NCBI GenBank assembly: GCA_965231155.1
Contig: OZ246418.1
Location: 637,710-701,709 of the forward strand
Direction: 5' to 3'
Length of the DNA: 64,000 bases
Source: an uncultured Candidatus Saccharibacteria bacterium
GTDB lineage: Bacteria > Patescibacteriota > Minisyncoccia > UBA6257 > 2-01-FULL-56-20
Under the pieces are notes generated by a model, which did no database searches, was not told the DNA's origin, and saw only the letters and a list, made by a program, of their open reading frames with translations. Numbering within the stretch: the stretch's first letter is position 1; each line of letters starts with the position of its first letter. Position numbers and translations under genes: made by a program. Positions 7,004 through 38,812 of the stretch are shown one piece after another.

Positions 7004-8194
7004 GTGTTTAAAATAGTTAAAGAATCGAATACATCAAATGCTCGTTTGGGTGTGATCGAGACACCTCATGGCATCGTGGAGACGCCTGCCTATGTCATCG
7101 TCGGTACTCATGCCGAGGTGCGGTGTCTGACGCCGGTTGATCTGGAGGCTTCTGAAACGCAGTTGATTATTGCAAATACTTATCACCTTTGGCGGGAGCT
7201 GGGGGATGAAGGATTAGCGAGCTATCCGGGACTTCATGCGGATATGCAGTGGCCTCATCCGATTATGACCGATTCCGGCGGGTTTCAGGTTTTTAGTTTG
7301 GGCGTTGCGCGAGAGGATGGCATGGGCAAGGTGAAAAAAGAGAGTGGTGATGTGATCGAGCCAGGAGAGAATTTAGTGCGGGTGACTGAGTCGGGAGTGT
7401 ATTTTATGGAGGATGGCGAGGAACAGTATCTTGATGCTGAGCTTTCGGTACGTATTCAGGAGCAACTCGGTGCGGATATTATCGTGGCTTTTGATGAACC
7501 GACTTCGCCAAATCATAGTTATGAATATACGAAGGAGTCTTTGCGACGAACGCACAAGTGGGCGGAGCGTTCGCTTGAGGCGCGGGTGACTAAGCAAATT
7601 ATGTATGGTGTGGTTCAGGGTGGTGCTTTTCCTGATTTACGAAAAGAAAGTGCTGAGTTTATTGGGCGTTTGCCTTTTGAAGGATTTGCGATTGGCGGAG
7701 CTTTTGGTGATTCATTTGGCAGTAAAAAAGATCAGATGATCACTGAGCTCGAAGCTTCGATTCCATTTTTGCCAAAAGATCGTCCGCGGCATCTTTTGGG
7801 TATTGGAAGAATTGAGGATTTATTTGTTGGGGTTGAGGCAGGGATCGATACATTCGACTGTGTGATTCCTACGCGTGAGGCTCGGCATGGTTCAGTCTGG
7901 ACCCGAGCTGGTCGGTTCGATCTCAAGAAATCAATATACGAAAATGATGACTCGCCAATTGATGAATTGTGTACGTGTCCCGTGTGTACTATTCATCAGA
8001 TCGATCGTCGTTCTTTGCGAAAGTTATTCAAAGATAAAGATCCTTTAGCTGGCCAGATGGCTACATTGCATAATGTGTATTTCTTTAATAATTTGATGTC
8101 CGAGATGCGCGCCGCAATAAAAAATGATGCCTGGGCTGAGCTTAAGAATCAGTATCTTTCTAAGAAGGATGGAGATCAGAGTCTCTCCGGCTAA
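7004..8194 (+). CDS. tgt: Queuine tRNA-ribosyltransferase.
   Basis: TPHGIVETPAYVIVGTHAEVR is present, and the zinc motif CTCPVCT lies near the C-terminus. Confidence 0.85.
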   Translation: MFKIVKESNTSNARLGVIETPHGIVETPAYVIVGTHAEVRCLTPVDLEASETQLIIANTYHLWRELGDEGLASYPGLHADMQWPHPIMTDSGGFQVFSLGVAREDGMGKVKKESGDVIEPGENLVRVTESGVYFMEDGEEQYLDAELSVRIQEQLGADIIVAFDEPTSPNHSYEYTKESLRRTHKWAERSLEARVTKQIMYGVVQGGAFPDLRKESAEFIGRLPFEGFAIGGAFGDSFGSKKDQMITELEASIPFLPKDRPRHLLGIGRIEDLFVGVEAGIDTFDCVIPTREARHGSVWTRAGRFDLKKSIYENDDSPIDELCTCPVCTIHQIDRRSLRKLFKDKDPLAGQMATLHNVYFFNNLMSEMRAAIKNDAWAELKNQYLSKKDGDQSLSG

Positions 8195-15359: not shown

Positions 15360-18300
15360 GTGAAAACTAGGGAATATGATGGGGGCATGAAAAAATCCAT
15401 TTTGGGGTCAGTTGATTTAGGTCTCAAAAAGGTCGGAGCAGTTATCAATATCTTTGCTCTGGTTGCTATTTTGTTTTCTCCATTTTTAGTTAATGTACCA
15501 ATCGCTGCGGCTGCTGACACAGTTATCTTTACAGAAAACTTTGAACAATCTGGGAATGCGATAGCTAATAGTTGGCGAACTGCCTCCGGGTCTGATGCTC
15601 CAGGTAGTGATACTCGAATAAGCAGTACAGATGATTCATGGGGTGGTGTGGAAGTGAGTGGTAAGGCGCTTCTTATTGAAGGTGCTGCCGGTGGTAATCC
15701 TGATGAGGGGGTGGAGCGGGATATTTCTACGCATGGTTACGCCACACTAAAGATTCAGTACTCTCGAGCTTTAAATGGAGTTGAGTCGGATGATCTATTC
15801 GTTGCCCAGTATTCTTTAGATGATGGCGCTTTCACAAATCTAGAAACTTTAAATGCTGATCAAGTTCATGCCGTGTCTCCAGTTTTCACGATTTCTAATC
15901 CTGACCGGCACACCAAACTCACGTTACGTTTCTACATCAACGGAAGTAACGATAATGACGAGGTGGGTATCGACAACCTGACCGTGTCTGGAGATAATGC
16001 ACCGATTTTCTATGATGGTTTTGAAAGTGATAATTTCACGACTGGTGGATGGAATATTTCCTCTAGCCCTGACGTAACCACGACTGTTTATTGGACTGAT
16101 GATAATACGAGTACTGCTGGACACAGCGCCCACTTCGATGGTGGCGGTTCTGATGACACCATCCTAAAGGCTCAAAGCACTGTTGGGTACAAAAACATTC
16201 GAGTAAGATTCGCTCGTGATATTGATAACATGGGTTCCGGTGAGTATTTCCGTGGGCAGTATTCTACTGACGGAGGAAGTAACTGGACCAACTTAGAATC
16301 TACTGATAATGAATCATTTGCCTCTGTTCTCCCAGGAGTAGCAAACCCCTTGCCCGCAGCAGCAGACAATAATTCAAGTTTTCAGGTTAGATTTCAAACT
16401 AATGGTAATGACAGTGGAGACGATGCTTATTTCGATGATGTTGTTATCTGGGGAGAGGTCGCTGCTACCAGCACGGTGACTGTAGATAAGGTGACCGTAC
16501 CGAGCGCTGATCCGCAGGTGTTCAATTTCACTCTGACCGGCCCAAACAATGCAACCACCAGTCTCACTGATACGCAGACTCCAGTTGCTTTGACTGGTTT
16601 ATCAGCTGGTGACTACACACTCATTGAAACCCCAGTTTCTGATTGGACGCTTTCAAGCGCCAGCTGTAGCGTTGCAACCACCCCATCCAGCACAGGAGTT
16701 ATGTTTACTGTTGGCGAAGGAGCTTCAGTTTCTTGCACCTTCAACAACACCAAACTTGGTTCGATCACCGTGTATAAGAACGTGATCTCGCCGAGCGAGG
16801 CCGATGTTTCCGACGACCACAGTTTCACCGCAACCCTGGATGGCAGCAACCCACAGAGCATCTCTGAAAATGCTTCCTATACTTACAGCAATCTTTTGCC
16901 TGGGGATTACACGATTGGGGAGGAGGTAGACGGTGATTATGATTTTATGAGCTTTTCCGCTGATGCCGAGCCGGAGACTAGCGGCGCGCAGGTTACGGTA
17001 GTAGCGGGGACTGATTTGGCCTTAACGATCACGAATAAACAGAAGAGTGGTCGCTTGATGATCACGAAGAATGTTACGAATCATGGCATCGGTAGTTCAA
17101 CTGCTTCAGAGTTTACGATCAGCGTTACCGGTTCAAACGCCTCGCCTGCTTCTTTCCCGGCCAGTGAGGTTGCGACCGAGGTGACTCTTGATCCAGGAGC
17201 GTACAGCGTTGGCGAATCTGGTCCAAGTGGGTATGCCATGTCTCAGACCGCTGGTTGTTCCGGTACGATTGCCCCAAATCAAACAGTAAACTGTACTGTT
17301 ACAAACAGTGATATTCCAACTGGGCAGGGCGCGATCACCATCATTAAGAATGTTACGAATGACAACGGCGGTACGCTTGGCCCTAACGATTTTACTCTTC
17401 AGGTTACTCCGGAAGGAGGAAGCGTTCAGACGGTAGTGAGTGGCGAGGCTGGATTCTTTGCTACTGGCACCTACACGATTAGTGAAGCTTCGAGCACGGG
17501 ATACACACAGACTGGTCTTAGCTGTACCAACGGTAGTGAATCAAACAGCGGCACCTTCACGCTTGATGAGCAGGAGGCGTATGTTTGTACTATTACCAAC
17601 GATGACAATGTTCCATCGCTAACACTAACGAAGGTCGTTTCCAATCCTTTTGGTGGCTCGGCTACTGCTGCTGATTGGACTCTTTCGGCCACGAGCAGTG
17701 AGGCCAGTACCCTCAGTGGTGTTGGTCCAACCGTTTCGAGTGACAGCGAGTTTGAAGCGGGAACCTACACACTTTCTGAAGCTCCAACAAGTGAAACCTC
17801 GACAATTACCCAGGGGTACGGCGCTTCTGATTGGGTTTGTGTTGGCGGAACACAAGGAGATGGTAATCATGTGACTATCGCGCTTGGTGAATCAGTAACG
17901 TGTACAATTACGAACACTCGTCTTTCCGGAAGTCTTCGAGTAACTAAAGTAGTGGTTGGTGGTACGGCCTCTTCTTCCGCTTTCAGTGTTCACGTGAAGC
18001 AAGACGGGGATGAGATTGAGGGTAGCCCGGCTGCCGGCGATAGCGAAGGAACCCTCTACTCGAACCTTCTAACCGGCAGTTATGCGGTGAGTGAAACCGG
18101 TGGACCAGCAAACTACAACTCATCGTTTAGTGGAAGCTGTGATGAGAGTGGAAATGTGGCCGTAGCTTCGGGTGAGACTGCGAATTGTGTTTTGACGAAT
18201 ACTTTTGATGAGCCTGAACCAGAAACCCCAACACCTCCGAGTGGTGGTGGGGGAGGTGGAGGTTCGTTTGTTCTTGTGCCATCGAGTAATCCAGGCGGAA

Positions 18301-18761
18301 CAACCGGTGCAGGAGCAACTGGTGGAACAACCGGCGGTACAACAGGAGGTGGTCAGACTGGTGGAGGAACTACTGGGGGTGGCACAACTGGCGGAAATGA
18401 AACAGGTGGCGCCGGTGTTACTGGAGAAGGTAATGTTCCGGGTGGTCTTGCCGGAGGTCCTCAGAATCCAGGAGGAAACGTTGGTGGAGGGAATGTAGGA
18501 GGAGGTAATATCGGCGGCGGTAATGTTGGGGGAGCAGCTGGTGTGATCGGTGGCGGAGTAGCAGAAGTTGGTGGTGGTCTTGCCGAGGGGACTGGTGGTG
18601 TTCCAACCTCAACTCAGCTCGCAAACCTTGCCTCTTCGACCGAACAAGTATCTCTTCTCGCTTCTATTCTCGATACTCTTGGTGGCAATATGAATCTCTT
18701 AATTCTTCTCATCGCCATCTTTGGTATCTTGGGTCTTATCTATTACTTTAGTAGGGATTAG
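15360..18761 (+). CDS. Giant cell-surface protein of 1133 aa. It has a signal/TM start, two jelly-roll (CBM/galactose-binding-like) domains, about nine Ig-like repeats each carrying a conserved Cys pair (…CT[IV]TN…), a Gly-rich disordered stalk, and a C-terminal TM anchor.
   Basis: N-terminal hydrophobic segment. The repeated block motifs are GSITVYKNV, GRLMITKNVTN, GAITIIKNVTN, and CTITNTR. The stalk is GGTTGGTTGG/GGNVGGGN, and the C-terminal helix is LLILLIAIFGILGLIYYFSRD. Confidence 0.7.
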   Translation: MKTREYDGGMKKSILGSVDLGLKKVGAVINIFALVAILFSPFLVNVPIAAAADTVIFTENFEQSGNAIANSWRTASGSDAPGSDTRISSTDDSWGGVEVSGKALLIEGAAGGNPDEGVERDISTHGYATLKIQYSRALNGVESDDLFVAQYSLDDGAFTNLETLNADQVHAVSPVFTISNPDRHTKLTLRFYINGSNDNDEVGIDNLTVSGDNAPIFYDGFESDNFTTGGWNISSSPDVTTTVYWTDDNTSTAGHSAHFDGGGSDDTILKAQSTVGYKNIRVRFARDIDNMGSGEYFRGQYSTDGGSNWTNLESTDNESFASVLPGVANPLPAAADNNSSFQVRFQTNGNDSGDDAYFDDVVIWGEVAATSTVTVDKVTVPSADPQVFNFTLTGPNNATTSLTDTQTPVALTGLSAGDYTLIETPVSDWTLSSASCSVATTPSSTGVMFTVGEGASVSCTFNNTKLGSITVYKNVISPSEADVSDDHSFTATLDGSNPQSISENASYTYSNLLPGDYTIGEEVDGDYDFMSFSADAEPETSGAQVTVVAGTDLALTITNKQKSGRLMITKNVTNHGIGSSTASEFTISVTGSNASPASFPASEVATEVTLDPGAYSVGESGPSGYAMSQTAGCSGTIAPNQTVNCTVTNSDIPTGQGAITIIKNVTNDNGGTLGPNDFTLQVTPEGGSVQTVVSGEAGFFATGTYTISEASSTGYTQTGLSCTNGSESNSGTFTLDEQEAYVCTITNDDNVPSLTLTKVVSNPFGGSATAADWTLSATSSEASTLSGVGPTVSSDSEFEAGTYTLSEAPTSETSTITQGYGASDWVCVGGTQGDGNHVTIALGESVTCTITNTRLSGSLRVTKVVVGGTASSSAFSVHVKQDGDEIEGSPAAGDSEGTLYSNLLTGSYAVSETGGPANYNSSFSGSCDESGNVAVASGETANCVLTNTFDEPEPETPTPPSGGGGGGGSFVLVPSSNPGGTTGAGATGGTTGGTTGGGQTGGGTTGGGTTGGNETGGAGVTGEGNVPGGLAGGPQNPGGNVGGGNVGGGNIGGGNVGGAAGVIGGGVAEVGGGLAEGTGGVPTSTQLANLASSTEQVSLLASILDTLGGNMNLLILLIAIFGILGLIYYFSRD

Positions 18762-20480: not shown

Positions 20481-21968
20481 ATGAAGAAAGGAATCTTAAT
20501 TGCATTCTTTTCTCTTAGTCTTGTTTCTTTCTTTGTTCAGGCAAGTCCTGTTCGTGCAGATAACAATGGTCCCTCGTTCATTGGTTTTATGCCTCCGTCA
20601 ACGGCAACAGCGACGGTTGCATATAGCTATGACGTTGAAGCAACCGATGGTGATGTTCCTGCTGATCCGTTAACTTTCAGTCTATTGTCCGCACCAGCTG
20701 GTATGATAATAGATGGTGGAACCGGATTAATTTCCTGGTTACCCTCAGAAGCGGATATCGCATCGAATCCTCATCTCGTTACCGTTCAGGTACAAGATAC
20801 GTTTCCGGCAGAACCGAACCATGTCGTTACGGAGAGTTTCCAGATTACTGTAGGAGCGGTGTCGACTTCGACTCCATCTTCAACAAATCTCGGACCTTCG
20901 TTCATTGGTTTTGTTCCTCCAGCCACTGCCACCGCGACGGTAGCCTATAGCTACACCGCAGTAGCAACTGATCCGGAAAGCGACCCTTTGACTTTCAGTT
21001 TAGTCACTGGGCCAGCCGGTCTTACCATTAATGCTTCCAGTGGTCTGATTAGTTGGACTCCCGATGCTACCCAGGTCTCAAGTACTCCGTATCTCGTTAC
21101 CGTTCAGGTACAGGATACGTATCCCTTGGAACCAAATCACGTAGTAGTGGAGAACTTCCAGATTACTGTGGGAGCTGCACCAACGACCACGACACCAACA
21201 TCGACTCCGCCAACAACCTGTACCGTAAACTGCGGTGGGGGAGGTGGAGGTAGTGTAGTTATTGTTCCTAGTGGATGTATTTCGAACTGTGGAGGAGGTG
21301 GGGGAGGAGGAACGCCAACTCCAACTAACCTTCCGCCATATTTCGTGAATTTCAACCCGGGAACAGTGGTGACGCTTGGTCAGGTGTATCTGTATGATGT
21401 CGATGGAAAGGATCCTGAGAACCAGCCGGTTACTTTCAGTCTTTTGGAAGGACCGAGTGGTTTGAATATTCTGCCGAACAACGGATTTATCTACTGGACC
21501 CCGGTTGACGGACAAGTTCGCGCTGAACCATATAAAGTAGTACTGCAGATTTCCGATGGATTTCTGACTGCCACTACCTCGTATGCAATTACTGTGGTTC
21601 GTCCGCCTGTAGTCATTATTGATACAGTGCCAGAACCGCCGGTAATTGTTCCGCCAGTAATCGAGCCACCAGTAACTCCGACAACTACAATCGTAACGGT
21701 TGTGGACACTCGGGGAACGCTGTTGGCCAGCATCATTGACTGGTTCCGCGATAACTACTGTCTCCTTGGATATCTCCTGTGGCTCCTGACTCTCCTTGCC
21801 TGGTTGGCTTATCTCCTCCTTGATCACGAGGATAAAGACGACGAGCGCGAAGAGATCGCCAAAGAGCTTCAGGTTGATTCCGAAGCTCCAGTGGTATCCG
21901 CAGAGTCGGATGTCATTCCGCTTTTCTCGCACGAGAGAGAAACAGACGAGAGTAAAGAAATCGTCTAA
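20481..21968 (+). CDS. Cell-surface protein with three cadherin-like 'putative Ig' (He_PIG/dystroglycan-type) repeats, Gly6-7 linkers flanked by Cys, a C-terminal TM anchor, and an acidic tail.
   Basis: It opens with a signal peptide. The repeated motif is PSFIGF[MV]PP…ATVAYSY…DPLTFSL…PAG[ML][TI]I…SGLISWTP. It also contains CGGGGGGS, the helix YLLWLLTLLAWLAYLLL, and a DE-rich C-terminus. Confidence 0.7.
   Translation: MKKGILIAFFSLSLVSFFVQASPVRADNNGPSFIGFMPPSTATATVAYSYDVEATDGDVPADPLTFSLLSAPAGMIIDGGTGLISWLPSEADIASNPHLVTVQVQDTFPAEPNHVVTESFQITVGAVSTSTPSSTNLGPSFIGFVPPATATATVAYSYTAVATDPESDPLTFSLVTGPAGLTINASSGLISWTPDATQVSSTPYLVTVQVQDTYPLEPNHVVVENFQITVGAAPTTTTPTSTPPTTCTVNCGGGGGGSVVIVPSGCISNCGGGGGGGTPTPTNLPPYFVNFNPGTVVTLGQVYLYDVDGKDPENQPVTFSLLEGPSGLNILPNNGFIYWTPVDGQVRAEPYKVVLQISDGFLTATTSYAITVVRPPVVIIDTVPEPPVIVPPVIEPPVTPTTTIVTVVDTRGTLLASIIDWFRDNYCLLGYLLWLLTLLAWLAYLLLDHEDKDDEREEIAKELQVDSEAPVVSAESDVIPLFSHERETDESKEIV
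20560..21190 (+). repeat. Two tandem, near-identical intragenic repeats of about 320 bp, encoding cadherin-like domains 1 and 2.
   Basis: High nucleotide identity is visible between 20567-20860 and 20890-21180. Confidence 0.6.
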
Positions 21969-22005
21969 TACTAAAAACCACCCGAAAGGGTGGTTTTTAG
22001 TATCT
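21969..22005 (+). terminator. Rho-independent terminator.
   Basis: AAAAACCACCC-GAAA-GGGTGGTTTTT. Confidence 0.7.
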
Positions 22006-22049: not shown

Positions 22050-22085
22050 AAAAAGGGTGAACGGGTCTTCCGTTCACCCTTTGAA
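22050..22085 (-). terminator. Rho-independent terminator for the minus-strand gene 22111-22797.
   Basis: GGGTGAACGG-GTCTTC-CGTTCACCC is preceded on the plus strand by AAAAAA, which reads as a U-run on the minus strand. Confidence 0.6.
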
Positions 22086-22110
22086 GGTGTGATGTGAGTC
22101 GTAGTCGAAA

Positions 22111-22797
22111 CTACGACCCGCAGTCAATGTCCGGCACGCCGTCGTGGGCGACCGGATCGTTCGGATCATCGGGGTCGCCACCCTCGACTAACTTTTTCAA
22201 CTCGTCGAGAGTGGAGAGCGAGGTTATCTTCTCCTGACTTTCTTCGAGGAGTTGAATCTGCCCCTCGACCAGGTCAAGAAGGTCCAAGATCCTGGGATAT
22301 GCGATCGTAACTGCCGAGACTAGATCGCATTTGGACTTTCTCTCCAGGCAACGAACCCAGGCGATCGGAGTATCAAGAACTCCTTCGCATAGGTTCTCCA
22401 GATTCCTGGAGTAGAGCGGTGCCGTCACTGACGGTGTCCCAACACTTGGGCCGACGACGTCGGCGTTGTTATGGGTGACACCAGTGTGTCCGGGTCCAGG
22501 GTGGCATTGTCTCTCGATGTGGCCGAAGTATCCATCGTGCTCTGTGCCTGAATGGATCTTTGGTAGTCCACTCAAGCAGGACTTTCCGGCCTTCTGCTGG
22601 CCTGTTTCGAGGTCAGCCTGTGCCTTGTCCAGGCACTTTGTCAGTACAGTGAATACGACCTTCCCATACCGACCCAGTCTCTTGCCCGCTTCTTTCTGGC
22701 AGGAGAGCAGGGACTTCTCCGGTGTCACGTTGGCAGCCTGAGAAGGAGCCGCCGCCAACACCGCCACCACCACCAACAACACTGCAAAGCGTTTCAT
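22111..22797 (-). CDS. Secreted Cys-rich hypothetical protein encoded in an island of about 59% GC, likely horizontally acquired. The start is set at MKRFAVLL.
   Basis: Signal peptide MKRFAVLLVVVAVLAAAPSQA and many Cys. GC counted over 100 nt at 22441-22540 is 59%, against about 43% in neighbouring genes. Confidence 0.55.
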   Translation of the reverse strand: MKRFAVLLVVVAVLAAAPSQAANVTPEKSLLSCQKEAGKRLGRYGKVVFTVLTKCLDKAQADLETGQQKAGKSCLSGLPKIHSGTEHDGYFGHIERQCHPGPGHTGVTHNNADVVGPSVGTPSVTAPLYSRNLENLCEGVLDTPIAWVRCLERKSKCDLVSAVTIAYPRILDLLDLVEGQIQLLEESQEKITSLSTLDELKKLVEGGDPDDPNDPVAHDGVPDIDCGS

Positions 22798-22960
22798 CGC
22801 GTCCTCCGTATTTGGGCTCCCGTAGGAGCACGTTGTGGTTTCGCACGCTAACCAATTTATAACACATATACGAGAAAAATCAAATTTCACAAAAAGAGGG
22901 GATAGATACACTTTTCCACAATAGGATAGATAAGAGTTCTGACCTATAATAAAACGACAG

Positions 22961-25900
22961 ATGAATAATCAATCGAGCTTCCGTAGATTCTTAGGATACT
23001 TTCTTTTAGTGGCCGTTTTTTTCTCTAGTTTTGGGAGTAGTTTTCTGGGACTTCATCAGACGGCAATGGCTGCGACGTACAATTTTTCGCAGACTACTTT
23101 TTCTGGCGGGGCAACGACAACGAGTTTCCCAACTCATGCGAGTAATTCTGTGAACTCTTACTCAGGAACCTGGTGGAACCAGTATTACAGTAAAGATGCC
23201 TCAACAACTGCCAGTACAGTTATTACTCTCGCTTCATCTTCGAGATCGATCACTCAAACTGACAATGGATCAACAAATACCGGGTTTAATATGGCGACTT
23301 CGAGTAATTCCTCGACTGCAGTGACTGGCTCGGGAGACGACGCTTTGGTTGAGTTAGCTCTTTCTTCAGCTCGTTTTCAGGATATTTTAGTAGCCACCTC
23401 TTCTTTGCCATCTAACAACGGCCTCGGAGTGGCATTCCATCCTAATGGTAAGTATATCGCAGTTGGTGGCGTGGGTTCGCCCTATCTCCATATTTATAAT
23501 TTTGATCCAGATACCTATACAATTGGGAATAAAATTACTGACTCAGTGACTAGTTGCGGAAGTTCTATTGATTCCGTTAGTTTCCATCCCGAAGGTAGAC
23601 ACTTGATGGTTTCTTGTGGAGGTACCTCGGTGATGATTTATGATTTCACTCCCTCTGCCACTTATAATGCAACGAGTGGGATTATTAGCGGAGGGGTTTC
23701 TCGTGGTTCAGTAGCTGGTGCTATGAATGAGGCAAAGTTCAGTCCGAATGGAAAATTCGTAGCCATTGCTCATGGTGGTTCTCCTTACTTATCTGTATAT
23801 TCCTTTAGTACGTCAACTAAAAATTTTGTAACGCTCATTAATCCAACCGACCTTCCTGATGGAACTGGTCGAGGGATAGACTTTTCTACTGATGGAGCCT
23901 ACATTGGTCTTGCGCATAGTATTAATCCGTTCGTATCGATTTATACTTTCAACTCGTCGACTGGAGCTATTGGGAGTACTAAAAAAAGTCCTAGCAATGT
24001 GCCTGGAGGAGCGGGATCTTCGATTTCTTTTCATCCCAGTAGTTCTTATGTAGCTGTAGGTAGCGCAGTTTCTAATGAAATAACAATCTATAACTTTAAC
24101 GGAAACTTTGGTAATAAATTGACTACGTCGACTCTGTTTGATGGTAGCGTTGAAGATGTTCGTTTTAGCCCCGATGGAAGTTATATTGCATTTGCAGTTT
24201 CTGATGCCGACACACCTTTTCATTACGTGCTTGGGTTCAATGCTACTTCCACTTGGAATGCAACTGCTAATGTAATCGGAGGGAACGTTCAGGCCGGAGA
24301 TAATTTGCCAGACGATGGAAATGGAATAGCCTTCCATCCAAGTAGCACTTTCCTTGCAATGGCTCATCACGGCTCTCCTTATTTTTCAGTCTATGCTCGT
24401 GTGCCACGTTATCCGACCGTGAGTGGTATCTATACTTCGGGTCCGATTGATTTTGGGAGTAAACAGAATTTTACGACACTGCAGTATGCGTCGAGTGGCT
24501 TATCAGGAACTAGCATAACGATTGATGTTCGTGCAGGTAACGATGCTTCACCTCCAACATCGTGGACAAGTTCGACAGCTAATTGGTCAACAAGCACGGC
24601 ATCGTATGTGAGTAACATCACTTCGAGTAGTGTGAGTATTGCTGGTCTTAGTGGATATCAGTATCTTCGTTATCGTGCGACTCTTTCAAACGGTGGTACT
24701 GATACGAAAACACCATCTTTGGAGAGTGTCACAATAAATTCGTATGCATTTCCGACGTCTTCGACCTTACTTGGATCTCCTTTTAATGCTGGTGACTCAA
24801 CTAATGTCTTTTCTGCATTCAAGTGGACGGATAACGCTTCCACTGCTTCGGGTACAGATGTTTTATTCCAAGTGCGTACCGGTGCAAGTACGGGTACGCT
24901 TGGCACGTTTGTCGGGCCAGGGGATTCAGCTAGTACGTATTTTTCTTCCAGTACTTGCAGTAAGGCAAGTGGTTTGGTTTCTTGTACTATTCCCAGCACT
25001 TCAACGCTTCGTGATGGTAGTAGTGATCAATGGATGCAGTATAAAACTTTCTTAATTTCACAGGGTCATAACGCACCAACGATTACTGGAGTAACGAGTA
25101 CATATGTAGTTAATGCCTCACCGGATTTTTCGAGCGTGACGGCAGCTACTACTACAACGACATCAACGCCAACTTCAACAGTTTCTATCCAGTTCCAAGT
25201 TCGAGATACTGACACGACAACAAATTACGTCACCTCTTCATATGAATATAGCACCTCGAGTGGGGTTAGTTGGACGAGCATTACGAGTGCCAGTTTAAAC
25301 AGTACTTCGACAGTCTCCACGACAGTCGATATATCTTCTTATACGAGTCGTACGGTAACCTGGAGTCCATCCGCTCAGATTCCTGGAGTATATGCAACGA
25401 GTGTCCAGGTTCGAGTCACGGCCAATGATTTTGAGTTAGCCAATAACCTTGGTCGAGCGACGGGGACTTTGTCTGTGCTGGATACGAAGAATCCGACAAG
25501 CGTATCGCTCAGTTTTGACTCGCGGAACGGGACCGATACTTTAACCATAGGTGCGAGCGATGACAGTAATTTACAATTTCTCCTTTCTAATTCAAGCGAT
25601 TTTTCTGCTGATGGATTAAATAGTTCAAGTGGTGTGTGGTCTGTGGCTACCACTCCGTCACTTTCAACAACCACAACGTGGAACGCGACAGGGACGCCAT
25701 CATACGAGAGGGTCTATCTGCAGGTGCGCGATATTTATGGAAATACCGCAACGACGAGTGTGGTGGCACCTCATACGCCACAGAGTGTGGTACTTTCTGA
25801 TATTTCAAATGTCAGCACCGGAGTCTATAGCGAGTATCTGAGTTGGGCAACTTCCACGGATACTACGGGCGCGACAACTGCTTTTTATGAAATTTATCGA

Positions 25901-28900
25901 TCGACAAACAATACTTCAAGCTTTGCATTTTTAGCTTCGACAACGGCGACTACCTATATCAACTCTGGACTGAATACTTCAATTACGTATTACTATCGTA
26001 TTACCACGAAAACGACTCAGGGGAACTACTCGAACTATTCGGATATTGTTGGTGATCAACCGAATGGGCGAGCGACAAATATTGCGCCGGAGTTTAATAC
26101 TAGTCTTGATAGTACAAACCAAACTGGTGTGATTATTAGTCAGGTGACGAGCACCGCTTCTTCTGACTGGGGGAAGGTCCAGATTCAGTATAGTGTTCGT
26201 GATGCCGATACTCATCTCGGATCATCAACGCCTGGTTATATTACTCCATCCTTTGCTTATAACATTGGCTCGGGTTGGGTAAGTATTTCTGGAGCAGCTC
26301 TGAATTCGACTTCGACTAATACCAAGGCAGTCTCGAGTTCAAGTTATACCACCTATACCGCTATTTGGAGTGCTTCGACGAGTCTTCCGAGCCAGTACAC
26401 TACAAACCTCCAGGTTCGGGTAACTGCCGATGATGGTGAATCAGCCAACAATACGACTCCTGGGGTGAGTACACCGATTACGCTCGACACCACTGCACCA
26501 ACACTAAGCTCTAGTCTTTTAGTTAATGGATATACAGCAAATGCACCAGCTACTTCGACCAGTGTGACTCTTCGAATTCAAAGTATTACAGGTGCTCCAT
26601 CAGGAGAGACAATTTATCCGCAATTTTCTAACGATGGTTCGACGTGGTATGGAATGAGTGGGGGAGCGACAACTACTGGCTTAGGAACGGCAGTATCTTC
26701 TACTGCTGGGGCGCTTTCTAGTCTTTCTTGGTCGTGGGTGCTGAGCGGTACAAATACGGTTTATTTAAGAGTTATTGATGCTCTGAATAACTATTCGGCG
26801 ACTTCTTCAGTTGATGTGCAGGGAATAAACCAAGCTCCTCAGGTTCAGACGCTCACTGTCTCGCAGAGTACGACTACGATTGGTCTTGTGAATATTAGTT
26901 ATCAGGTTCAGGACAGTGATCAGGGGAGTGTGTCCTCTTCTTTCGCCTATAGCACCGACGGTGCTAGTTGGACGACTCTTTCGGGAATGAATGCTACCGC
27001 CACCGCGCTTTCCAGTCTTTCAACAAGTTCTTGGAATACGATATATGCAACATGGAACGCCTCGTCTCAGATTCCGAATGCCTATACCAGTGGTTTGCAA
27101 GTTAGAGTGACACTGAATGATGCTCAGGCCGTCAATAGTTCAACAGTGGCCACCACCAGCCTAAATCTCGATACCTTAGCACCGACTCGTAGTTTGACCC
27201 TTGATGCGCGAACAACGACCGGAACAGTTACTCTCTCGCTTTCGGATAATAATAATCTTGAATATTTACTTTCTAACTCGAGTACTCTCGTTGCTGATGG
27301 ACAGAACGCTTCGAGCGGAGTCTGGATTACAGTAGGGGATACTTCGCTCTCGACGAGTACTGCTTGGAATCTCGCAGCTACTTCTTCGCACGCTACTGTA
27401 TATCTCCAGGTGCGAGATCTTTATGGCAATGTGACTTCAACTTCAGCCATTGCCCCTGGTGTTGTTTCCGGAATGACTTTGCAGGACATTTCTGAGCGAG
27501 CGTCTGGATTGTTCAAGCATTTGATTACCTGGACGGCCTATGAAGCGACAACTTCTGCTTCATTGGCACATTACGAAGTTTATCGTTCGAGTAATAACTC
27601 CAGTAGTTTTGCGCGAGTGGCAACTACAACAAATAATTCATATACCGATCTCAGCATTGCTTCGACTACTGTTTATTATTACCGAGTGGTAGTTGTGACA
27701 ACGAATGGAAATTATTCTGACTATTCGAGTATCGTGAGTGGTCAGCCGACCGGTTCAGCGAATACTGCTCCTAATTTTAATACAAGCCTTGATAGTACGA
27801 ACCAAACGGGTGCCACGATTTTACACAGCGCCACTTCAAGTAGTCCCGACTGGGGAAGAGTTCAGATTCAGTATAGTGTTCGGGATACCGATACGAACTT
27901 AGGTTCATCGACTCCTGGATATATCACCCCATCTTTTGAGTACAATATTGGCTCGGGTTGGGTGAACATCGCGACGTCGACTCTCAATAGTACATCGACG
28001 GATAACAAGACGGTTACTACTTCTAGCTACAACACCTATACAGCGGTTTGGAGTGCTTCGACCAGTCTTCCTTCGACCTACACAACTAATTTGCGAGTAC
28101 GGGTAACCGCTGATGACAATGAATCTTCAAATAACACCGGACAGGCGGTGACTGCACCGATCACCTTGGACACCACCGCGCCAACACTAGCTTCGACATC
28201 CTTATTGATTAACAATTCTAGTGATAATGCCGAAGCGACTTCGACTGCGGTAACTCTGAAACTTCAGAGTATCACTGGTACGCCATCGGGGGAGTCTGTT
28301 TATATTCAGTTTTCTAACGATGGTTCAACCTGGTATGCCGGGAATGCGGATGGAACGGTGACTTCAACTGCCGGTACTTTAGGGAGTTTAGTTTCCTCAA
28401 CTGCTGCATCATTGTCTGCAGTTTCTTGGCCTTGGGTCTTTAGTGGGAGTACTGTCTATGTTCGTGTGTTTGATGTCTTGGGAAATGGTCCAGGAACCGA
28501 CTCGAATACTGTGTATGGATATAATACCGCGCCAGAAATTCAGAATATGACGGCCTTGCAGATTGCCACCACGACTGATAGTAGTTGGGGTTCGTTGAGG
28601 ATTGATTTCGAAACAAGAGATACTGATTCTTCGAATAATTTAGTGAGTTCGACGTTTGCCTTTTCGACTTCAAGTGGAGTGACTTGGACGAGTATTCCAA
28701 CCTCAACGTTGAATGCTACAGCGACAGCCTCGTTTGCAGTTTCAACTTCGTCATACACTGCCTACAGTGTGGTATGGAATGTTTCCTCGACGCTTGTTGA
28801 TACTTATTCTACGGATTTGCGAATTCGAGTGACCGTGAATGATCGAGCAACTGTCAATAATATAACGAGTTCAACTGCTACCGTTACTCTTGATACTCGG

Positions 28901-31900
28901 TCGCCAAGTTTAGCTTCTGATTCTTTATTGGTGAACGATTCCGCCTCCAGTGGTCAGAGCACTTCTTCGGTGGTGACATTAAAGCTCCAGAATGTTACTG
29001 GTTTGCCGACAGGGGAGACGATCTACGCTCAGTTCTCTGATGACAACTCAACCTGGTATGGTGCGAACTCTTCAGGAACACTCGCTTCAAGTTCAGAGCT
29101 GGGAAGTGGTTTTAGTTCGGCGACAAGTACTTTGAGCGGTTTATCTTGGAGTTGGAACTTGGGGAGCGGGAGTTCGAGTAGATCGAAAGTGCTTCGAGTA
29201 AGAATTTATGATGCCTATGGAAATTCGGGAGGTTCGGATACTAACTCTGTCGGATATAACACTTCGCCAGATTTCAATCCTCTCTATGGTACGAATGGTT
29301 TGAGCGTAAGTCAGGTTTCTTCTTCGGCTGATTCAACTTGGGGGAAGGTGATAATTCAGTACAATGTTCGTGATACAGATACCAGTGTTGGCTCTTCAAC
29401 TCCTGGATATATCACACCATCTTTTGAGTATAGTATTGGCGCCGGGTGGTCTGCTATTCAGACTTCTACATTAGGAGAATCTGACATTAGTAATAAGGGA
29501 GTGAACGATTCATCCTATACGACTCACTCTGCTACTTGGCATGCCTCCTCGCAGATTTCCGGAACATATACGACCGCCTTACAGATTCGAGTTACGGCGA
29601 ATGATAATGAATCAGTTTCTAACACTGCCACAGCTACCTCTGGACTAGTTGTTCTCGACACGAAAGTTCCTTCAACGACAGTTCAGATTGACAGTAGGAC
29701 AGATAGTCTATCCATTACTGCTTCTGATGACTCGACTATTAGCTACAATCTCTCTAATGCCTCTTCTTTGATTGCGGATGGTTCTAATGCCTCTTCGGGG
29801 AGTTGGACTGAAACCAATGCAACCTCAACCAATACTTCAAGTAGTTGGACCTTGGTCGCTGGAGCGACATCAGTAGAGACTGTGTATTATGCCGTGCGTG
29901 ATCTTTTTGGAAATATTACGACTGGTTCGGCCAGTGCGCCTGCGGCGCCTGCTTCGACGACAGTGAGCGACATCTCGACTGCGAGTAGTTCGAACTTCAA
30001 GGAGCTGATAAGCTGGACCGCGTATACGGCAACTTCTGGTCCAACCTTTGCCAGTTACGAAGTCTTCAGAGCAACCAGTGCCGATCCTTCGACCTTTTCG
30101 TTACTTGCATCTGTTTCTGATTCTGCTCAGAACTACTACACAGATACTGGCTTAGCATCTTCAACAACCTATTACTATAAGGTAGCCATCAAAACTTCAA
30201 ATGGTGACTATTCTGGTTATGGAGAAACTGTTTCCGATCAGCCAGATGGTTTGTCTGGGGCGGCCGCCGAGGGACCAACTATTTCGGATGTGTCAGCAGC
30301 TGAGGTGCAAGCGTCATGGGCACGCTTTACTTGGACAACTGACCGAGTTTCTGATTCCAAGGTTGAGTATTCAGTTGCTACTTCTGGTACGCCATACAGC
30401 CTTTCGACCACTTCTCTTACTTTGGTGACTAGTCACGATATTACGGTGAATGATTTACTCCCGAATACGACCTATTCCTTCCGAGTAACCTCTAAGGATA
30501 TTAATAATAAACAGTCAACGACAGTTGGATCTGACTTCACGACAAGTGGCGGTCCAATTATCTCAGCGGTTACCACTGAAGCAGTGACTGATCATACCGC
30601 TTCGATTATTTGGAACACCAACAAAGATTCTGATTCCATTGTGGTATATGCAACGAGTACTCAGAATCTACGGAATGCCACTGGTACCTCAGAAGCTGGT
30701 AGCACTAGCTTAGTGGGTTCTCCATTCCAGCATCGTGTGACACTTTCCGGACTTAATACTCAGACGATTTATTACTACTATGTAAAATCAACTGACGCTT
30801 CAGCCAACGTTTCAACCGAAAAGAATAGTGGTAATTTCTACACCTTTAGTACTGCTCAAGATACAAAAGCGCCGGTTATCTCCAATATCTTAGTTGCTGC
30901 AAAAACACAAACGGCTGCGGTGATCACTTGGCAAACTGACGAACCAGCAAATACCCAAATTAGCTATGATACACGTTCGGCTTCTTCGACTGGTCTTGCT
31001 CATCGAAATCTAACTACCCTCGATGACACAATGACTGTCAGTCATGCTGGCGTCATTTCTGATTTGGTTGCCGGTAGGACGTATTATTACAGCGTGAAGT
31101 CAACTGATGCAGCAGGTAATATAACCACTGCCGATGAAGTAAGTTTTGAAACTGCGAATAGCGAAACACCGATTATTAATTACGTGAGTGTTGGTGGTGG
31201 AGCGTCTGCCCCTGCTGATCCAAAAGATAAGACTGCGCCTGGCATCTCGGATATAGAAATAACAGACATTACACCATTTTCTGCCAAGCTTACCTTTAAG
31301 ACCAACGAAGAGGCCATTGGCTTCGCTGCCTTTGGTGAAACTGATGAATATGGACGAGTTCTTGGTGAGCCTAAATTTAGAACTGACCATATGATTCCAT
31401 TGACTAATTTAAAGTTGGGAACGACCTATCACTTAGAGGTGAAGGCCAGCGACAAGGCAGGTAATTTTGGAACAGCGCCAGATCAAACATTCACTACTAA
31501 ATTCGCGGTGGAGAGTGCAGGTGACATCGCCAAGCTAGAAAATGTGGAACAGTATCAGAGTGAGATTGATCAGTTAATTGAGTCAATCACACCTTCTCTC
31601 ATCACTCCTTTTGTGGGCAAGGTTGATATTTCTGATGTTACTGAAGACTCGGCAGTTATTAAATGGGTAACGAATACGAAGACGTATGGCTCGGTGCTCT
31701 ATGTGGCGGATAAAGATTACGACGAGACAAAAGAAAATCCATATCTTGCTGAGGTAAGCGATACTCAGCCGAGGACGACTACTCATCAGGTGAAATTAAG
31801 TAATCTAGCTTTTGGACAACTTTATCGATTCAAAGTTAAGGCATACACCTTGCCTAACGTGACCGGTTTTAGTTCCGAGAGAACATTCACGACAAAGTCT

Positions 31901-32557
31901 TCGAAGATTCGTCCTGATGTAGTTAAGCTCTTAAATACAAGCTTCGTAGTAAGTTGGCAGACGCAGAAGAAGACTACTTCCTTTGTTGAATATCAGAACG
32001 TACGTACTGGTCAGATTAAACAGAGCGGAAATGATGCCTCAGTAACCGCTCACGTTGTTCAGGTTGAAAACCTTGAGCCAAATGCAACCTATCGAGTGAG
32101 AGCTTTTGGGTATGACGAAAAAAATAATATTGTGGAAAGTGAAACTATTACTGTGACGACGAAGCGAGATATCACTCCACCAGTTATTTCTGGACTGAAG
32201 ATCGATAATACGTTCGTGCCGGGTAGAAATGATCGCATTCAAACAGTTATCAGCTGGAAGACTGATGAGCCATCTACTTCTATGATTTTATATGGTGAAG
32301 GAGCAACTGCTGGGAAGAGAGGATTGTCAGACACTGCTAGCTCTACTGATGGTTCCCTGAATACTTCGCATAATGTGATTATCACCAACTTTAAGCCAGG
32401 CACAATTTATCAGATGCAGGTGGTGTCTGTTGATAGCGCTGGCAATAAGGCAACTTCACCACCTCGAGTGATTATTACACCAAAGCAGAATCAGTCGGTT
32501 TTTGATGTCATTGTGAAAAACTTTGAAGGCACGTTTAAATTCGTTAATCCGCAGTAG
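22961..32557 (+). CDS. Giant extracellular protein of 3198 aa. It has an N-terminal signal/TM, a 7-bladed beta-propeller (lactonase/YVTN-like), about six tandem modules of roughly 330-550 aa containing FN3-like domains, and about eight C-terminal FN3/PAP-N-like domains.
   Basis: Blade motif F[HS]P[ND]GKY[IV]A…GSPY[LF]S[VI]Y[NS]F x7. Repeated blocks include DWGKVQIQYSVRD…GYITPSF[AE]YNIGSGW…, LDTTAPTL, and YE[IV]YRS…YYYR. C-terminal repeats are T…V.W.T[DN]…S.V.Y and TYY[YF].V.S.D. No C-terminal anchor is present. Confidence 0.75.
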   Translation: MNNQSSFRRFLGYFLLVAVFFSSFGSSFLGLHQTAMAATYNFSQTTFSGGATTTSFPTHASNSVNSYSGTWWNQYYSKDASTTASTVITLASSSRSITQTDNGSTNTGFNMATSSNSSTAVTGSGDDALVELALSSARFQDILVATSSLPSNNGLGVAFHPNGKYIAVGGVGSPYLHIYNFDPDTYTIGNKITDSVTSCGSSIDSVSFHPEGRHLMVSCGGTSVMIYDFTPSATYNATSGIISGGVSRGSVAGAMNEAKFSPNGKFVAIAHGGSPYLSVYSFSTSTKNFVTLINPTDLPDGTGRGIDFSTDGAYIGLAHSINPFVSIYTFNSSTGAIGSTKKSPSNVPGGAGSSISFHPSSSYVAVGSAVSNEITIYNFNGNFGNKLTTSTLFDGSVEDVRFSPDGSYIAFAVSDADTPFHYVLGFNATSTWNATANVIGGNVQAGDNLPDDGNGIAFHPSSTFLAMAHHGSPYFSVYARVPRYPTVSGIYTSGPIDFGSKQNFTTLQYASSGLSGTSITIDVRAGNDASPPTSWTSSTANWSTSTASYVSNITSSSVSIAGLSGYQYLRYRATLSNGGTDTKTPSLESVTINSYAFPTSSTLLGSPFNAGDSTNVFSAFKWTDNASTASGTDVLFQVRTGASTGTLGTFVGPGDSASTYFSSSTCSKASGLVSCTIPSTSTLRDGSSDQWMQYKTFLISQGHNAPTITGVTSTYVVNASPDFSSVTAATTTTTSTPTSTVSIQFQVRDTDTTTNYVTSSYEYSTSSGVSWTSITSASLNSTSTVSTTVDISSYTSRTVTWSPSAQIPGVYATSVQVRVTANDFELANNLGRATGTLSVLDTKNPTSVSLSFDSRNGTDTLTIGASDDSNLQFLLSNSSDFSADGLNSSSGVWSVATTPSLSTTTTWNATGTPSYERVYLQVRDIYGNTATTSVVAPHTPQSVVLSDISNVSTGVYSEYLSWATSTDTTGATTAFYEIYRSTNNTSSFAFLASTTATTYINSGLNTSITYYYRITTKTTQGNYSNYSDIVGDQPNGRATNIAPEFNTSLDSTNQTGVIISQVTSTASSDWGKVQIQYSVRDADTHLGSSTPGYITPSFAYNIGSGWVSISGAALNSTSTNTKAVSSSSYTTYTAIWSASTSLPSQYTTNLQVRVTADDGESANNTTPGVSTPITLDTTAPTLSSSLLVNGYTANAPATSTSVTLRIQSITGAPSGETIYPQFSNDGSTWYGMSGGATTTGLGTAVSSTAGALSSLSWSWVLSGTNTVYLRVIDALNNYSATSSVDVQGINQAPQVQTLTVSQSTTTIGLVNISYQVQDSDQGSVSSSFAYSTDGASWTTLSGMNATATALSSLSTSSWNTIYATWNASSQIPNAYTSGLQVRVTLNDAQAVNSSTVATTSLNLDTLAPTRSLTLDARTTTGTVTLSLSDNNNLEYLLSNSSTLVADGQNASSGVWITVGDTSLSTSTAWNLAATSSHATVYLQVRDLYGNVTSTSAIAPGVVSGMTLQDISERASGLFKHLITWTAYEATTSASLAHYEVYRSSNNSSSFARVATTTNNSYTDLSIASTTVYYYRVVVVTTNGNYSDYSSIVSGQPTGSANTAPNFNTSLDSTNQTGATILHSATSSSPDWGRVQIQYSVRDTDTNLGSSTPGYITPSFEYNIGSGWVNIATSTLNSTSTDNKTVTTSSYNTYTAVWSASTSLPSTYTTNLRVRVTADDNESSNNTGQAVTAPITLDTTAPTLASTSLLINNSSDNAEATSTAVTLKLQSITGTPSGESVYIQFSNDGSTWYAGNADGTVTSTAGTLGSLVSSTAASLSAVSWPWVFSGSTVYVRVFDVLGNGPGTDSNTVYGYNTAPEIQNMTALQIATTTDSSWGSLRIDFETRDTDSSNNLVSSTFAFSTSSGVTWTSIPTSTLNATATASFAVSTSSYTAYSVVWNVSSTLVDTYSTDLRIRVTVNDRATVNNITSSTATVTLDTRSPSLASDSLLVNDSASSGQSTSSVVTLKLQNVTGLPTGETIYAQFSDDNSTWYGANSSGTLASSSELGSGFSSATSTLSGLSWSWNLGSGSSSRSKVLRVRIYDAYGNSGGSDTNSVGYNTSPDFNPLYGTNGLSVSQVSSSADSTWGKVIIQYNVRDTDTSVGSSTPGYITPSFEYSIGAGWSAIQTSTLGESDISNKGVNDSSYTTHSATWHASSQISGTYTTALQIRVTANDNESVSNTATATSGLVVLDTKVPSTTVQIDSRTDSLSITASDDSTISYNLSNASSLIADGSNASSGSWTETNATSTNTSSSWTLVAGATSVETVYYAVRDLFGNITTGSASAPAAPASTTVSDISTASSSNFKELISWTAYTATSGPTFASYEVFRATSADPSTFSLLASVSDSAQNYYTDTGLASSTTYYYKVAIKTSNGDYSGYGETVSDQPDGLSGAAAEGPTISDVSAAEVQASWARFTWTTDRVSDSKVEYSVATSGTPYSLSTTSLTLVTSHDITVNDLLPNTTYSFRVTSKDINNKQSTTVGSDFTTSGGPIISAVTTEAVTDHTASIIWNTNKDSDSIVVYATSTQNLRNATGTSEAGSTSLVGSPFQHRVTLSGLNTQTIYYYYVKSTDASANVSTEKNSGNFYTFSTAQDTKAPVISNILVAAKTQTAAVITWQTDEPANTQISYDTRSASSTGLAHRNLTTLDDTMTVSHAGVISDLVAGRTYYYSVKSTDAAGNITTADEVSFETANSETPIINYVSVGGGASAPADPKDKTAPGISDIEITDITPFSAKLTFKTNEEAIGFAAFGETDEYGRVLGEPKFRTDHMIPLTNLKLGTTYHLEVKASDKAGNFGTAPDQTFTTKFAVESAGDIAKLENVEQYQSEIDQLIESITPSLITPFVGKVDISDVTEDSAVIKWVTNTKTYGSVLYVADKDYDETKENPYLAEVSDTQPRTTTHQVKLSNLAFGQLYRFKVKAYTLPNVTGFSSERTFTTKSSKIRPDVVKLLNTSFVVSWQTQKKTTSFVEYQNVRTGQIKQSGNDASVTAHVVQVENLEPNATYRVRAFGYDEKNNIVESETITVTTKRDITPPVISGLKIDNTFVPGRNDRIQTVISWKTDEPSTSMILYGEGATAGKRGLSDTASSTDGSLNTSHNVIITNFKPGTIYQMQVVSVDSAGNKATSPPRVIITPKQNQSVFDVIVKNFEGTFKFVNPQ
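25090..29700 (+). repeat. Intragenic tandem repeat modules, about 1.5-1.7 kb apart and about 80% identical at the nucleotide level, inside the 3198-aa gene.
   Basis: Near-identical segments start at about 26166, 27849, and 29338 (…cagattcagtatagtgttcg[tg]gat…ggatatat[ct]ac[tc]ccatc[ct]tttg…). Confidence 0.6.
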
Positions 32558-38726: not shown

Positions 38727-38812
38727 AATAGATCTTGCGTTTTATCTAATATTGTTGTTTAATATTTTTAGCAGTCTTGGCGGATAGTCGAGACAAAAGA
38801 GAGGAGCTCGTC

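Follow-up and report, generated by a model that had tools for sequence, protein, structure and literature searches.

Probable foreign high-GC origin and mosaic core of a secreted-protein gene at a fixed locus in Patescibacteria

How does a single gene come to be so much richer in G and C than the genome around it? The question is raised by a gene at positions 22111-22797 (minus strand) of a 64-kb stretch of bacterial DNA (the window, analysed at its full length), which encodes a predicted secreted protein of 228 amino acids (aa). The only exact database copy of this protein is on an 808-kb NCBI contig. Judged from its sequence, the host is a Patescibacteria (Candidate Phyla Radiation, CPR) bacterium; homologs of the adjacent 3'-5' exonuclease-like gene are source-labelled Patescibacteria, Candidatus Pacebacteria or Parcubacteria. 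The initial annotation of the window took the gene for a recent horizontal acquisition from a high-GC donor. We consider it probable that the gene has a foreign high-GC origin and that, in addition, its allele was replaced in mosaic fashion. The first half of the earlier claim therefore stands, on the evidence of homologs in DNA of 63-67% GC and of an anomaly at silent sites and in oligonucleotides. The words "recent" and "single event" do not, because the same slot is occupied in three species whose housekeeping genes are saturated for synonymous substitutions (dS) and because the core of the gene appears to have been replaced.

The compositional anomaly is real, if somewhat smaller than first described. 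The open reading frame (ORF) has a GC content of 56.5%, against a window mean of 44.8%. Windows of the same length, 687 nucleotides (nt), have a mean of 44.7% and a standard deviation (SD) of 3.1%, so the value lies about 3.8 SD higher and is reached by 0.5% of them. The initial figures of about 59% against about 44% hold only for the richest 100 nt of the gene: a manual count of 59 G+C at 22441-22540 was recomputed as 59%. The excess is at synonymous sites, because GC at third codon positions (GC3) is high (0.655, z=3.5 relative to the 48 other genes of the window) while GC at second positions (GC2) is normal (0.419, z=0.4), and amino-acid composition is therefore not its cause. GC at first positions (GC1) is 0.62. 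All other genes of the window have a GC3 of 0.33-0.565, with the single exception of 38777-39562 (0.687). Codon usage shifts accordingly, with larger shares than in the remaining genes for GGC (0.35 vs 0.16), CTG (0.26 vs 0.11), GTC (0.36 vs 0.14), CCG (0.50 vs 0.23), GAC (0.62 vs 0.24), and AAG (0.73 vs 0.42); CTC, TCC, and GAG are also favoured. The reported switch to GCC, GGC, and CTG is thus correct for the latter two codons, and the GCC share barely moves (0.29 vs 0.25).

Oligonucleotides give the same picture. The tetranucleotide profile of 22101-22800 correlates with that of its own genome window at 0.12-0.13 (mean 0.60, SD 0.16), which is the fourth lowest value among 633 windows, and the three lower ones all lie inside a second island (38813-39562). 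The sliding-window GC, GC3 and tetranucleotide profiles that the initial annotation proposed are therefore not uniform, and GC changes abruptly at both borders of the gene. Base composition, codon usage and oligonucleotide signature are all atypical for the host genome. The gene is not the only such island in the window: the second one is even richer in GC (59%, GC3 0.69).

Homology searches with the 228-aa product, also proposed at the outset, found relatives. A phmmer search of 1.84 billion cluster representatives returned 75 matches at E<=1e-3, only three of them at E<=1e-30, and a search of 5.8 billion protein clusters returned three clusters. The nearest relative outside the CPR is a protein from a metagenome-assembled genome (MAG) labelled Candidatus Binatia, which is 44% identical over the whole protein. 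It is encoded on a 217-kb contig, in DNA of about 65% GC with ordinary metabolic genes around it, and has the same context in five assemblies. The GC3 of this copy is 0.78 (most neighbours have 0.83-0.93), and the tetranucleotide correlation between our gene and the Binatia locus is 0.42. Two more distant family members are found on contigs of 63.6% GC (with a tandem paralog) and 66.7% GC (with an Lcl_C domain). The homolog DNA examined outside the CPR clade thus comes from three carriers (the Binatia MAG, a JGI contig and an ENA contig), with GC contents of 63-67%. On the 63.6% GC contig (L020; also L021), the family member P0013 at 6127-6750 is directly followed by a partial-length paralog at 7127-7513, so the domain family is multi-copy in at least one high-GC genome.

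Neighbour joining on the mature domains of 63 sequences places the window, other CPR and Binatia proteins, which are the five closest, in one clade with 100% bootstrap support. The closest homologs beyond the CPR clade are those of a distant lineage with matching composition, a phylogenetic pattern that indicates horizontal gene transfer (HGT). The initial annotation had expected such placement to identify the donor lineage. The clade with Binatia bears this out in part, but with a single sampled relative, 44% identical, "Binatia-like" is as close as the donor can be named. Transfer into the CPR is the favoured direction, because the diversity, architectures and paralogy of the family are found in its high-GC members and because the CPR copies are compositionally alien.

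The gene occupies a fixed slot in several CPR species. Looking up the exact proteins put the orthologs P0002, P0003, and P0004 on Logan contigs that share the gene order of the window, and the same slot is occupied in the window strain (L006-L008), in L001, L002, and L003, and in L005. The window strain itself was recovered in three more assemblies (L006-L008) from separate Sequence Read Archive (SRA) runs, with 100% identity and the same junctions, and orthologous junctions occur in four further assemblies of two other species. The junctions therefore recur in at least seven independent assemblies, which excludes the assembly chimerism that the initial annotation had wished to see checked. 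In all three species the gene has 57-60% GC and its flanks about 45%. At the corresponding site of L014 (a groundwater MAG) and of the more distant L017, both this gene and the giant surface-protein gene next to it are missing.

A species tree from housekeeping genes makes the window and L1 (L001, L002, L016) sisters and puts L5 (L005) far off. The window and L1 share 95% of the aa of trigger factor and 98% of those of the exonuclease, with a dS of 1.3-1.5. The trigger factor of L5 is 67% identical, and its dS is saturated against both the window and L1. Other surface proteins of the window are 45-54% identical to those of distant relatives (He_PIG protein 54%; SpaA-like protein 48%, L005; a 215-aa protein 45%, L014). 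Within the L1/L3/L5 allele class of our gene, the ratio of nonsynonymous to synonymous substitution rates (dN/dS) is 0.08-0.14; this is purifying selection, which supports the reading frame, and the gene is therefore functional in CPR cells. All eight cysteines (Cys) are conserved.

Different parts of the gene appear to have different histories. This was assessed with a DNA alignment of the four CPR loci, in which identity was calculated by block. For the promoter and intergenic region, nt identity is 0.83 between the window and L1, 0.68 between the window and L5, and 0.63 between L1 and L5. The same three comparisons give 0.87, 0.81, and 0.75 for the 5' untranslated region (5'UTR), 0.82, 0.78, and 0.77 for codons 1-39, and 0.46, 0.45, and 0.79 for the core of the gene (22145-22680). 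At the protein level, the alleles of the sister species are 39% identical and those of the distant L1 and L5 are 85% identical. The dS of the core between L1 and L5 is 1.07, although their genomes are saturated. At the signal-peptide start, the window and L001 are 100% identical in nt sequence (18/18 aligned codons in the first 20 alignment columns), and blastn aligned the window core with that of no relative.

The species tree is therefore followed by the promoter, the 5'UTR, the signal peptide and the terminator, whereas the core contradicts it in both directions. Because the core tree contradicts the species tree while the flanks follow it, the simplest reading is that the core would have been replaced by intragenic recombination, one breakpoint lying close to codon 40 and the other close to the DGVPDIDC motif. 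The Binatia protein shares the 3' motif (the DGVPDIDCGS end). Over the 162 columns of the core, the window allele agrees with Binatia at 74 and with the L1-class allele of its sister species at 63, bootstrap support is 72% for the window with Binatia and 26% for the window with the L1 class, and the quartet counts are 2.95 vs 2.67.

Two mechanisms of local diversification were considered and set aside on the evidence of the window. A diversity-generating retroelement (DGR) would come with a nearby template repeat that matches the variable region apart from adenine-specific mismatches, but the 64 kb contain no part of the gene a second time, and the alleles diverge along the entire mature domain, with nt identity of about 50%. 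No reverse transcriptase was matched among the 29 window ORFs scanned with Pfam, with about 20 ORFs of at least 100 aa outside that scan. Silent cassettes of the pilE/pilS type, promoterless partial copies that would serve as donors of the variable core, were dropped as far as these 64 kb of the 808-kb genome go, because they contain no repeat or paralog.

The composition of the core also bears on timing. When substitutions were polarised, changes from GC to AT outnumbered those from AT to GC by 33:19 on the L001 and L003 branches and, for L001 and L005 with two outgroups, by 30 to 5. This lean is what amelioration (the gradual drift of a foreign gene towards the composition of its host) predicts. 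The core GC3 of the CPR alleles is 0.62-0.73. By a rough relaxation estimate, the L1/L5-class ancestor would have had a donor-like GC3 of about 0.8, and for a gene present since the window and L5 diverged a GC3 close to 0.5 would be expected today. Since the observed values exceed that estimate, the comparison favours, but does not prove, core alleles that are younger than the slot, possibly through two imports.

How well do other explanations fit? One is that the ancestor of all three CPR species acquired the gene once, long ago, and passed it on vertically while this surface protein diverged fast, that L1 and L5 later exchanged an allele once, and that GC was kept by mRNA or codon selection. 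It would explain why slot and expression signals are common to all CPR alleles, and it is helped by the likewise low identity of other surface proteins between the window and L005 or L014, by a 5' block that roughly tracks the species tree and is GC3-rich too, and by the 26% bootstrap that CPR allele monophyly retains. We still regard it as rather unlikely: with housekeeping dS saturated between L5 and the window or L1, GC3 should have fallen to roughly 0.5 and not stayed where the cores have it, the substitutions lean from GC to AT and hence are not stationary, and the window core is no nearer to the L1 class than to Binatia. GC-favouring codon selection is not evident either, in that the gene for ribosomal protein L9 has a GC3 of 0.367, from which we conclude that highly expressed genes here have no preference for G/C-ending codons. 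The L9 value argues equally against a native gene with GC raised by amino-acid composition or translational codon bias. Such a gene is very unlikely given the normal GC2 beside the high GC3, the foreign tetranucleotide signature, and the 63-67% GC genomes in which all examined homologs outside the three CPR species are found, even though Ala, Gly, and Val abound in the mature protein (GC1 as quoted above) and another patch of the window (17760-18761) does owe its GC to amino-acid composition.

Transfer in reverse, from the CPR to Binatia or other high-GC bacteria, might be read from the slightly lower GC3 of the Binatia copy compared with its neighbours. Members in other high-GC genomes are, however, also a few percent GC-poorer than their flanks, which fits an effect of amino-acid composition. 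The CPR copies are foreign in their own genomes, and the wider family is diverse, multi-domain and accompanied by paralogs in high-GC contigs, whereas in the CPR it is confined to one small clade, so we hold reverse transfer to be highly improbable. An abrupt GC step at both borders in metagenome-derived sequence could also arise when a high-GC fragment is mis-joined or a contaminant is included. That explanation is scarcely credible here: the junctions are identical in the assemblies of three SRA runs and orthologous in four assemblies of two other species, and the borders carry a conserved CPR-type promoter, 5'UTR and terminator.

A foreign origin with a replaced core has difficulties of its own. 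Its donor side is a single MAG at 44% identity, with no near-identical donor sequence. The second GC-rich island is without any high-GC homolog, so that GC-rich genes for secreted proteins might have a cause specific to this lineage. The window, L1-class and Binatia cores form a trichotomy, which is compatible with one import or with several. Codons 1-39, the conserved 5' block, have a GC3 of 0.54-0.74, which is unexpected for a very old resident flank, and with this block in mind selection for GC may also be a cause of the retained GC. The substitution counts are low, and parsimony exaggerates changes that lead from common bases to rare ones, which go in the same direction as the lean we observed. 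There are no direct repeats at the borders of the gene, no mobility gene adjoins it, and the only tRNA of the window is 15 kb off, so nothing there points to a mechanism of entry; an origin as a genomic island or transposon, or with target-site duplication, was rejected for want of an integrase, a bordering tRNA and flanking direct repeats. Finally, the function proposed below is without an experimental or structural analog, Foldseek searches against PDB and BFVD being empty.

With these reservations, the history we propose for a foreign gene with a replaced core would run as follows. The gene would have entered from a high-GC lineage, whose nearest sampled kin is the Binatia MAG, and would now sit between two surface-protein genes, driven by CPR-type signals (its own promoter region, 5'UTR, ribosome-binding site (RBS), Sec signal peptide and terminator). 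Its product would be exported and its signal peptide removed, and the mature protein of about 206 aa would fold as a helical bundle. The locus would predate the present allele, and its core would have undergone one or more recombinational replacements between related CPR species. As the GC-rich state of every allele suggests, the cores may have been imported relatively recently, possibly more than once, and decay from GC to AT is apparently under way.

Most Patescibacteria, whose genomes are tiny, are believed to live attached to other microbes, and their partners are rarely known. One could imagine the slot as a fixed expression site at which an episymbiotic Patescibacterium repeatedly captures the secreted mature domain of a high-GC (Binatia-like) partner or host. 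We think this improbable and offer it as speculation, built on three allele lineages and one donor-side sequence. If it were true, a host-derived module would be displayed on or near the bacterium's own surface, and the allele would record, and perhaps determine, the host lineage with which each CPR species associates.

What kind of protein does the gene encode? The 228-aa protein has no Pfam, NCBIfam or PDB sequence match. A profile of the 63 aligned family sequences likewise found nothing for the N-terminal domain, its sole match being in the Lcl_C part. The phmmer matches nevertheless define a domain family. It is characterised by a signal peptide and, after it, an all-alpha domain some 200 aa long in which 7-8 Cys as well as W147, P100, H109, and P168 are conserved, and our protein fits this definition. 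Distant matches are 23-35% identical, with E-values down to 2.5e-12, and have the N-terminal domain of about 200 aa in common. C33, C55, C74, C98, C137, W147, and C150 are invariant in the 63 sequences, and P100, H109, and P168 are nearly so. Two phmmer matches, P0006 and P0007, were held to be spurious (15-20 short matching stretches and unrelated domains).

An AlphaFold2 model made with the family alignment is confident, with a predicted local distance difference test score (pLDDT) of 90.8 and a predicted template modelling score (pTM) of 0.83. It is all-alpha, with about ten helices including one of 40 residues, and Foldseek found nothing better than E ~0.5-1 for it in PDB and BFVD. Four disulfides probably brace the fold. 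The initial annotation had counted at least 12 Cys, but the 228-aa product has eight.

Many relatives are longer. A C-terminal Lcl_C/DUF1566 domain (PF07603) is present in 32 of the 63 aligned relatives, and others have ephrin-receptor-like Cys repeats or FG-GAP repeats downstream of the domain; Pfam gave no Lcl_C match in our protein, this domain being found only in the longer relatives. Family members that are complete at the N-terminus open with a signal-peptide-like hydrophobic stretch, so these relatives, too, appear to be secreted. On sequence evidence, then, our protein is a stand-alone copy of what would be an undescribed extracellular helical domain. Because of its fusion partners and genomic company, we tentatively suggest an extracellular binding or adaptor role at the cell surface or host interface, a possibility to which we attach limited confidence. 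No match was found by tblastn against plasmids or by two scans of JGI metagenomes (with peptide patterns and with a conserved 5'UTR DNA pattern), the exact protein P0001 has no record in the contig index, and the SRA run accessions gave no match in the literature.

The locus resembles several known systems in part. Lawrence and Ochman reportedly described, in their amelioration model, transferred genes that are compositionally atypical by GC and codon usage. Like such genes, ours has a GC3, codon and tetranucleotide anomaly confined to one gene, homologs in a distant high-GC lineage, an apparently patchy distribution among relatives, and a substitution bias from GC to AT. Unlike classical HGT genes, it is bordered by no integrase, tRNA or repeat, it carries expression signals of native type, it stays in one slot across several species, and its GC has decayed less than the age of the slot predicts. 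Enterobacterial flagellin (fliC) has conserved ends and a horizontally replaced central region. As in fliC, the ends of our gene follow the species tree, and its centre is about 50% divergent in the sister species and similar between distant ones. The family and fold are different, however, the replaced core is compositionally foreign, and three allele lineages have been sampled.

Published surveys offer further comparisons. The available portion of a groundwater MAG survey (PMC12455944) describes the transfer of single genes into CPR genomes, mostly from Patescibacteria to Patescibacteria and occasionally from donors of other phyla, and its table of donor phyla includes Patescibacteria, Omnitrophota, Bacteroidota, Nanoarchaeota, Pseudomonadota, and five others. 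Our gene matches both parts of that pattern, in that it combines a cross-phylum origin with allele exchange between CPR species. In the same portion of that survey, the term Binatia is absent from the text and no intragenic mosaic such as ours was met. The Legionella adhesin Lcl binds glycosaminoglycans through its head, which is a DUF1566 domain (PMC11162425), and DUF1566 also occurs in the text of several DGR surveys. The likeness to Lcl/DUF1566 adhesins is that half of the relatives (those with Lcl_C) pair the same N-terminal Cys-containing helical domain with it; the window and Binatia proteins differ in being the N-terminal domain alone. Unlike DGR-diversified proteins, ours has no template repeat in the window.

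Detecting HGT by GC content is ordinary as a phenomenon. What is new here is the Binatia-like source, the undescribed domain family with a confident but unmatched fold, and the intragenic mosaic at a fixed slot. A foreign secreted-protein gene under purifying selection among giant surface proteins is a lead to the donor or partner lineage and to interface molecules, and the mosaic indicates that single surface-related CPR genes can turn over by intragenic recombination. The undescribed all-alpha disulfide domain, which precedes DUF1566 and other binding modules in high-GC bacteria, is a reasonable target for Pfam and for structure determination.

The features of the locus are listed in Table 1. 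The start at ATG 22797 is favoured by conservation and by the RBS upstream of it. A longer reading from GTG 22911 (mechanical ORF of 266 aa; public call P0078 of 259 aa, with 11 Cys) was rejected on the same two grounds. A classical signal peptide had been noted initially, and we agree: read from the sequence, it is of the Sec type, with a mean Kyte-Doolittle hydropathy of 3.16 over residues 4-17, and residues 1-20 have low pLDDT. It has no lipobox, ending in ...AAAPSQA/ANV with the first Cys at residue 33, so the protein does not look like a lipoprotein. Two further observations of the initial annotation were borne out, namely an orientation opposite to the neighbours (both flanking genes are on the plus strand) and a terminator of the gene's own at 22050-22085, which is the hairpin 22082..22052. 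This terminator is kept in all CPR relatives, and the changes in L005 are all G-U-compatible.

The region upstream of the gene is also conserved. The 5'UTR is 81-90% identical among CPR relatives despite saturated four-fold sites between these species, and it may be a regulatory element. Upstream DNA in Binatia is unrelated to the CPR 5'UTR and signal peptide sequence. A consensus scan of the region found no complete sigma-70 site, Rfam yielded nothing for the 5'UTR and the intergenic DNA beyond terminator-like chance matches below the threshold, and covariation was not detected in a four-sequence fold of the 5'UTR.

Table 1. Coordinates of the gene, its parts and signals, and the edges of its slot (window positions)
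Feature	Position	Strand	Remarks
Coding sequence	22111..22797	-	228 aa, secreted all-alpha protein, 8 conserved Cys
Signal peptide, residues 1-21	22735..22797	-	MKRFAVLLVVVAVLAAAPSQA, predicted cleavage after SQA, then A
Hyper-divergent core, ~codons 40-217, mature domain	22145..22680	-	Block identities opposite to species tree
Conserved 3' end, ...DGVPDIDCGS + stop	22111..22144	-	0.71-0.82 nt identity to CPR relatives
RBS GGAGG	22803-22807	-	5-nt spacer to ATG
Small hairpin GCUCC...GGAGC in 5'UTR	22816-22829	-	Conserved
Putative 5'UTR	22798..22860	-	Overlaps putative -10
Conserved 5'UTR motif of slot			AAACCACAACGTGCTCC...ATGAAACG
Putative extended -10 TGTGTTATAAAT	22855..22866	-	By-eye reading; same in 4/4 CPR loci
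Intrinsic terminator AAAGGGTGAACGGAAGACCCGTTCACCCTTTTTTATTTCTC	22052..22082	-	13-bp stem, 5-nt loop, T-run
Terminator hairpin of He_PIG gene	21968..22003	+	16-bp perfect inverted repeat; left edge of slot
He_PIG immunoglobulin (Ig)-domain surface-protein gene	20481-21968	+	Pfam; flanks the target gene
3198-aa surface-protein gene	22961..32557	+	Divergent from the target gene; right slot edge in 3 CPR species

The gene order common to the window and the ortholog loci is trigger factor, tRNA-binding protein, large surface protein, PCC, pterin dehydratase, exonuclease, He_PIG, our gene, giant protein, and ATP-binding cassette (ABC) transporter. In the window, a MacB-type ABC exporter and a GH18 enzyme are encoded beyond the 3198-aa gene. 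The region 19612-41428 looks like a variable insertion hotspot for surface-protein genes, because the exonuclease-uvrB arrangement of more distant Patescibacteria is replaced there by a surface-protein block. In L017 the exonuclease gene is directly followed by uvrB, and in L014 two genes of about 700 aa stand between them. In the window clade the exonuclease gene is followed by the block (He_PIG, our gene, and the 3198-aa protein), the ABC exporter and GH18, and there is no uvrB among the window ORFs scanned up to 41.4 kb.

Two other GC-rich patches were seen in the window. The patch at 17760-18761 (plus strand; about 52-58% GC), the C-terminal part of ORF 15360-18761, encodes part of a 1133-aa surface protein with SpaA/prealbumin-fold repeats, namely a low-complexity Gly/Thr/Pro/Ala region that makes up the stalk and membrane anchor. 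Its GC is driven by amino-acid composition and is not foreign, because GC1 and GC2 are about 0.61 yet GC3 is 0.335.

The other patch is the single-gene island at 38813-39562 (plus strand), which is stronger than the first. Its tetranucleotides correlate at -0.07 with its own genome and at 0.64 with the Binatia locus. The product has 249 aa and a signal peptide. Among 5.8 billion protein clusters its sole homolog is 58% identical, on a CPR-like contig (L019), where the gene has 55% GC against 45%. An AlphaFold2 model (pLDDT 72) matches SGNH/GDSL hydrolases such as TesA at E ~2e-4, with GDY in place of the GDS that holds the serine. Immediately upstream, at 37958-38726 (plus strand), are genes for a nickel superoxide dismutase (Ni-SOD; Sod_Ni) and an S26-type protein resembling its maturation peptidase (SodX peptidase), which have a host-typical GC of 0.43-0.45 in this ultra-small CPR genome.

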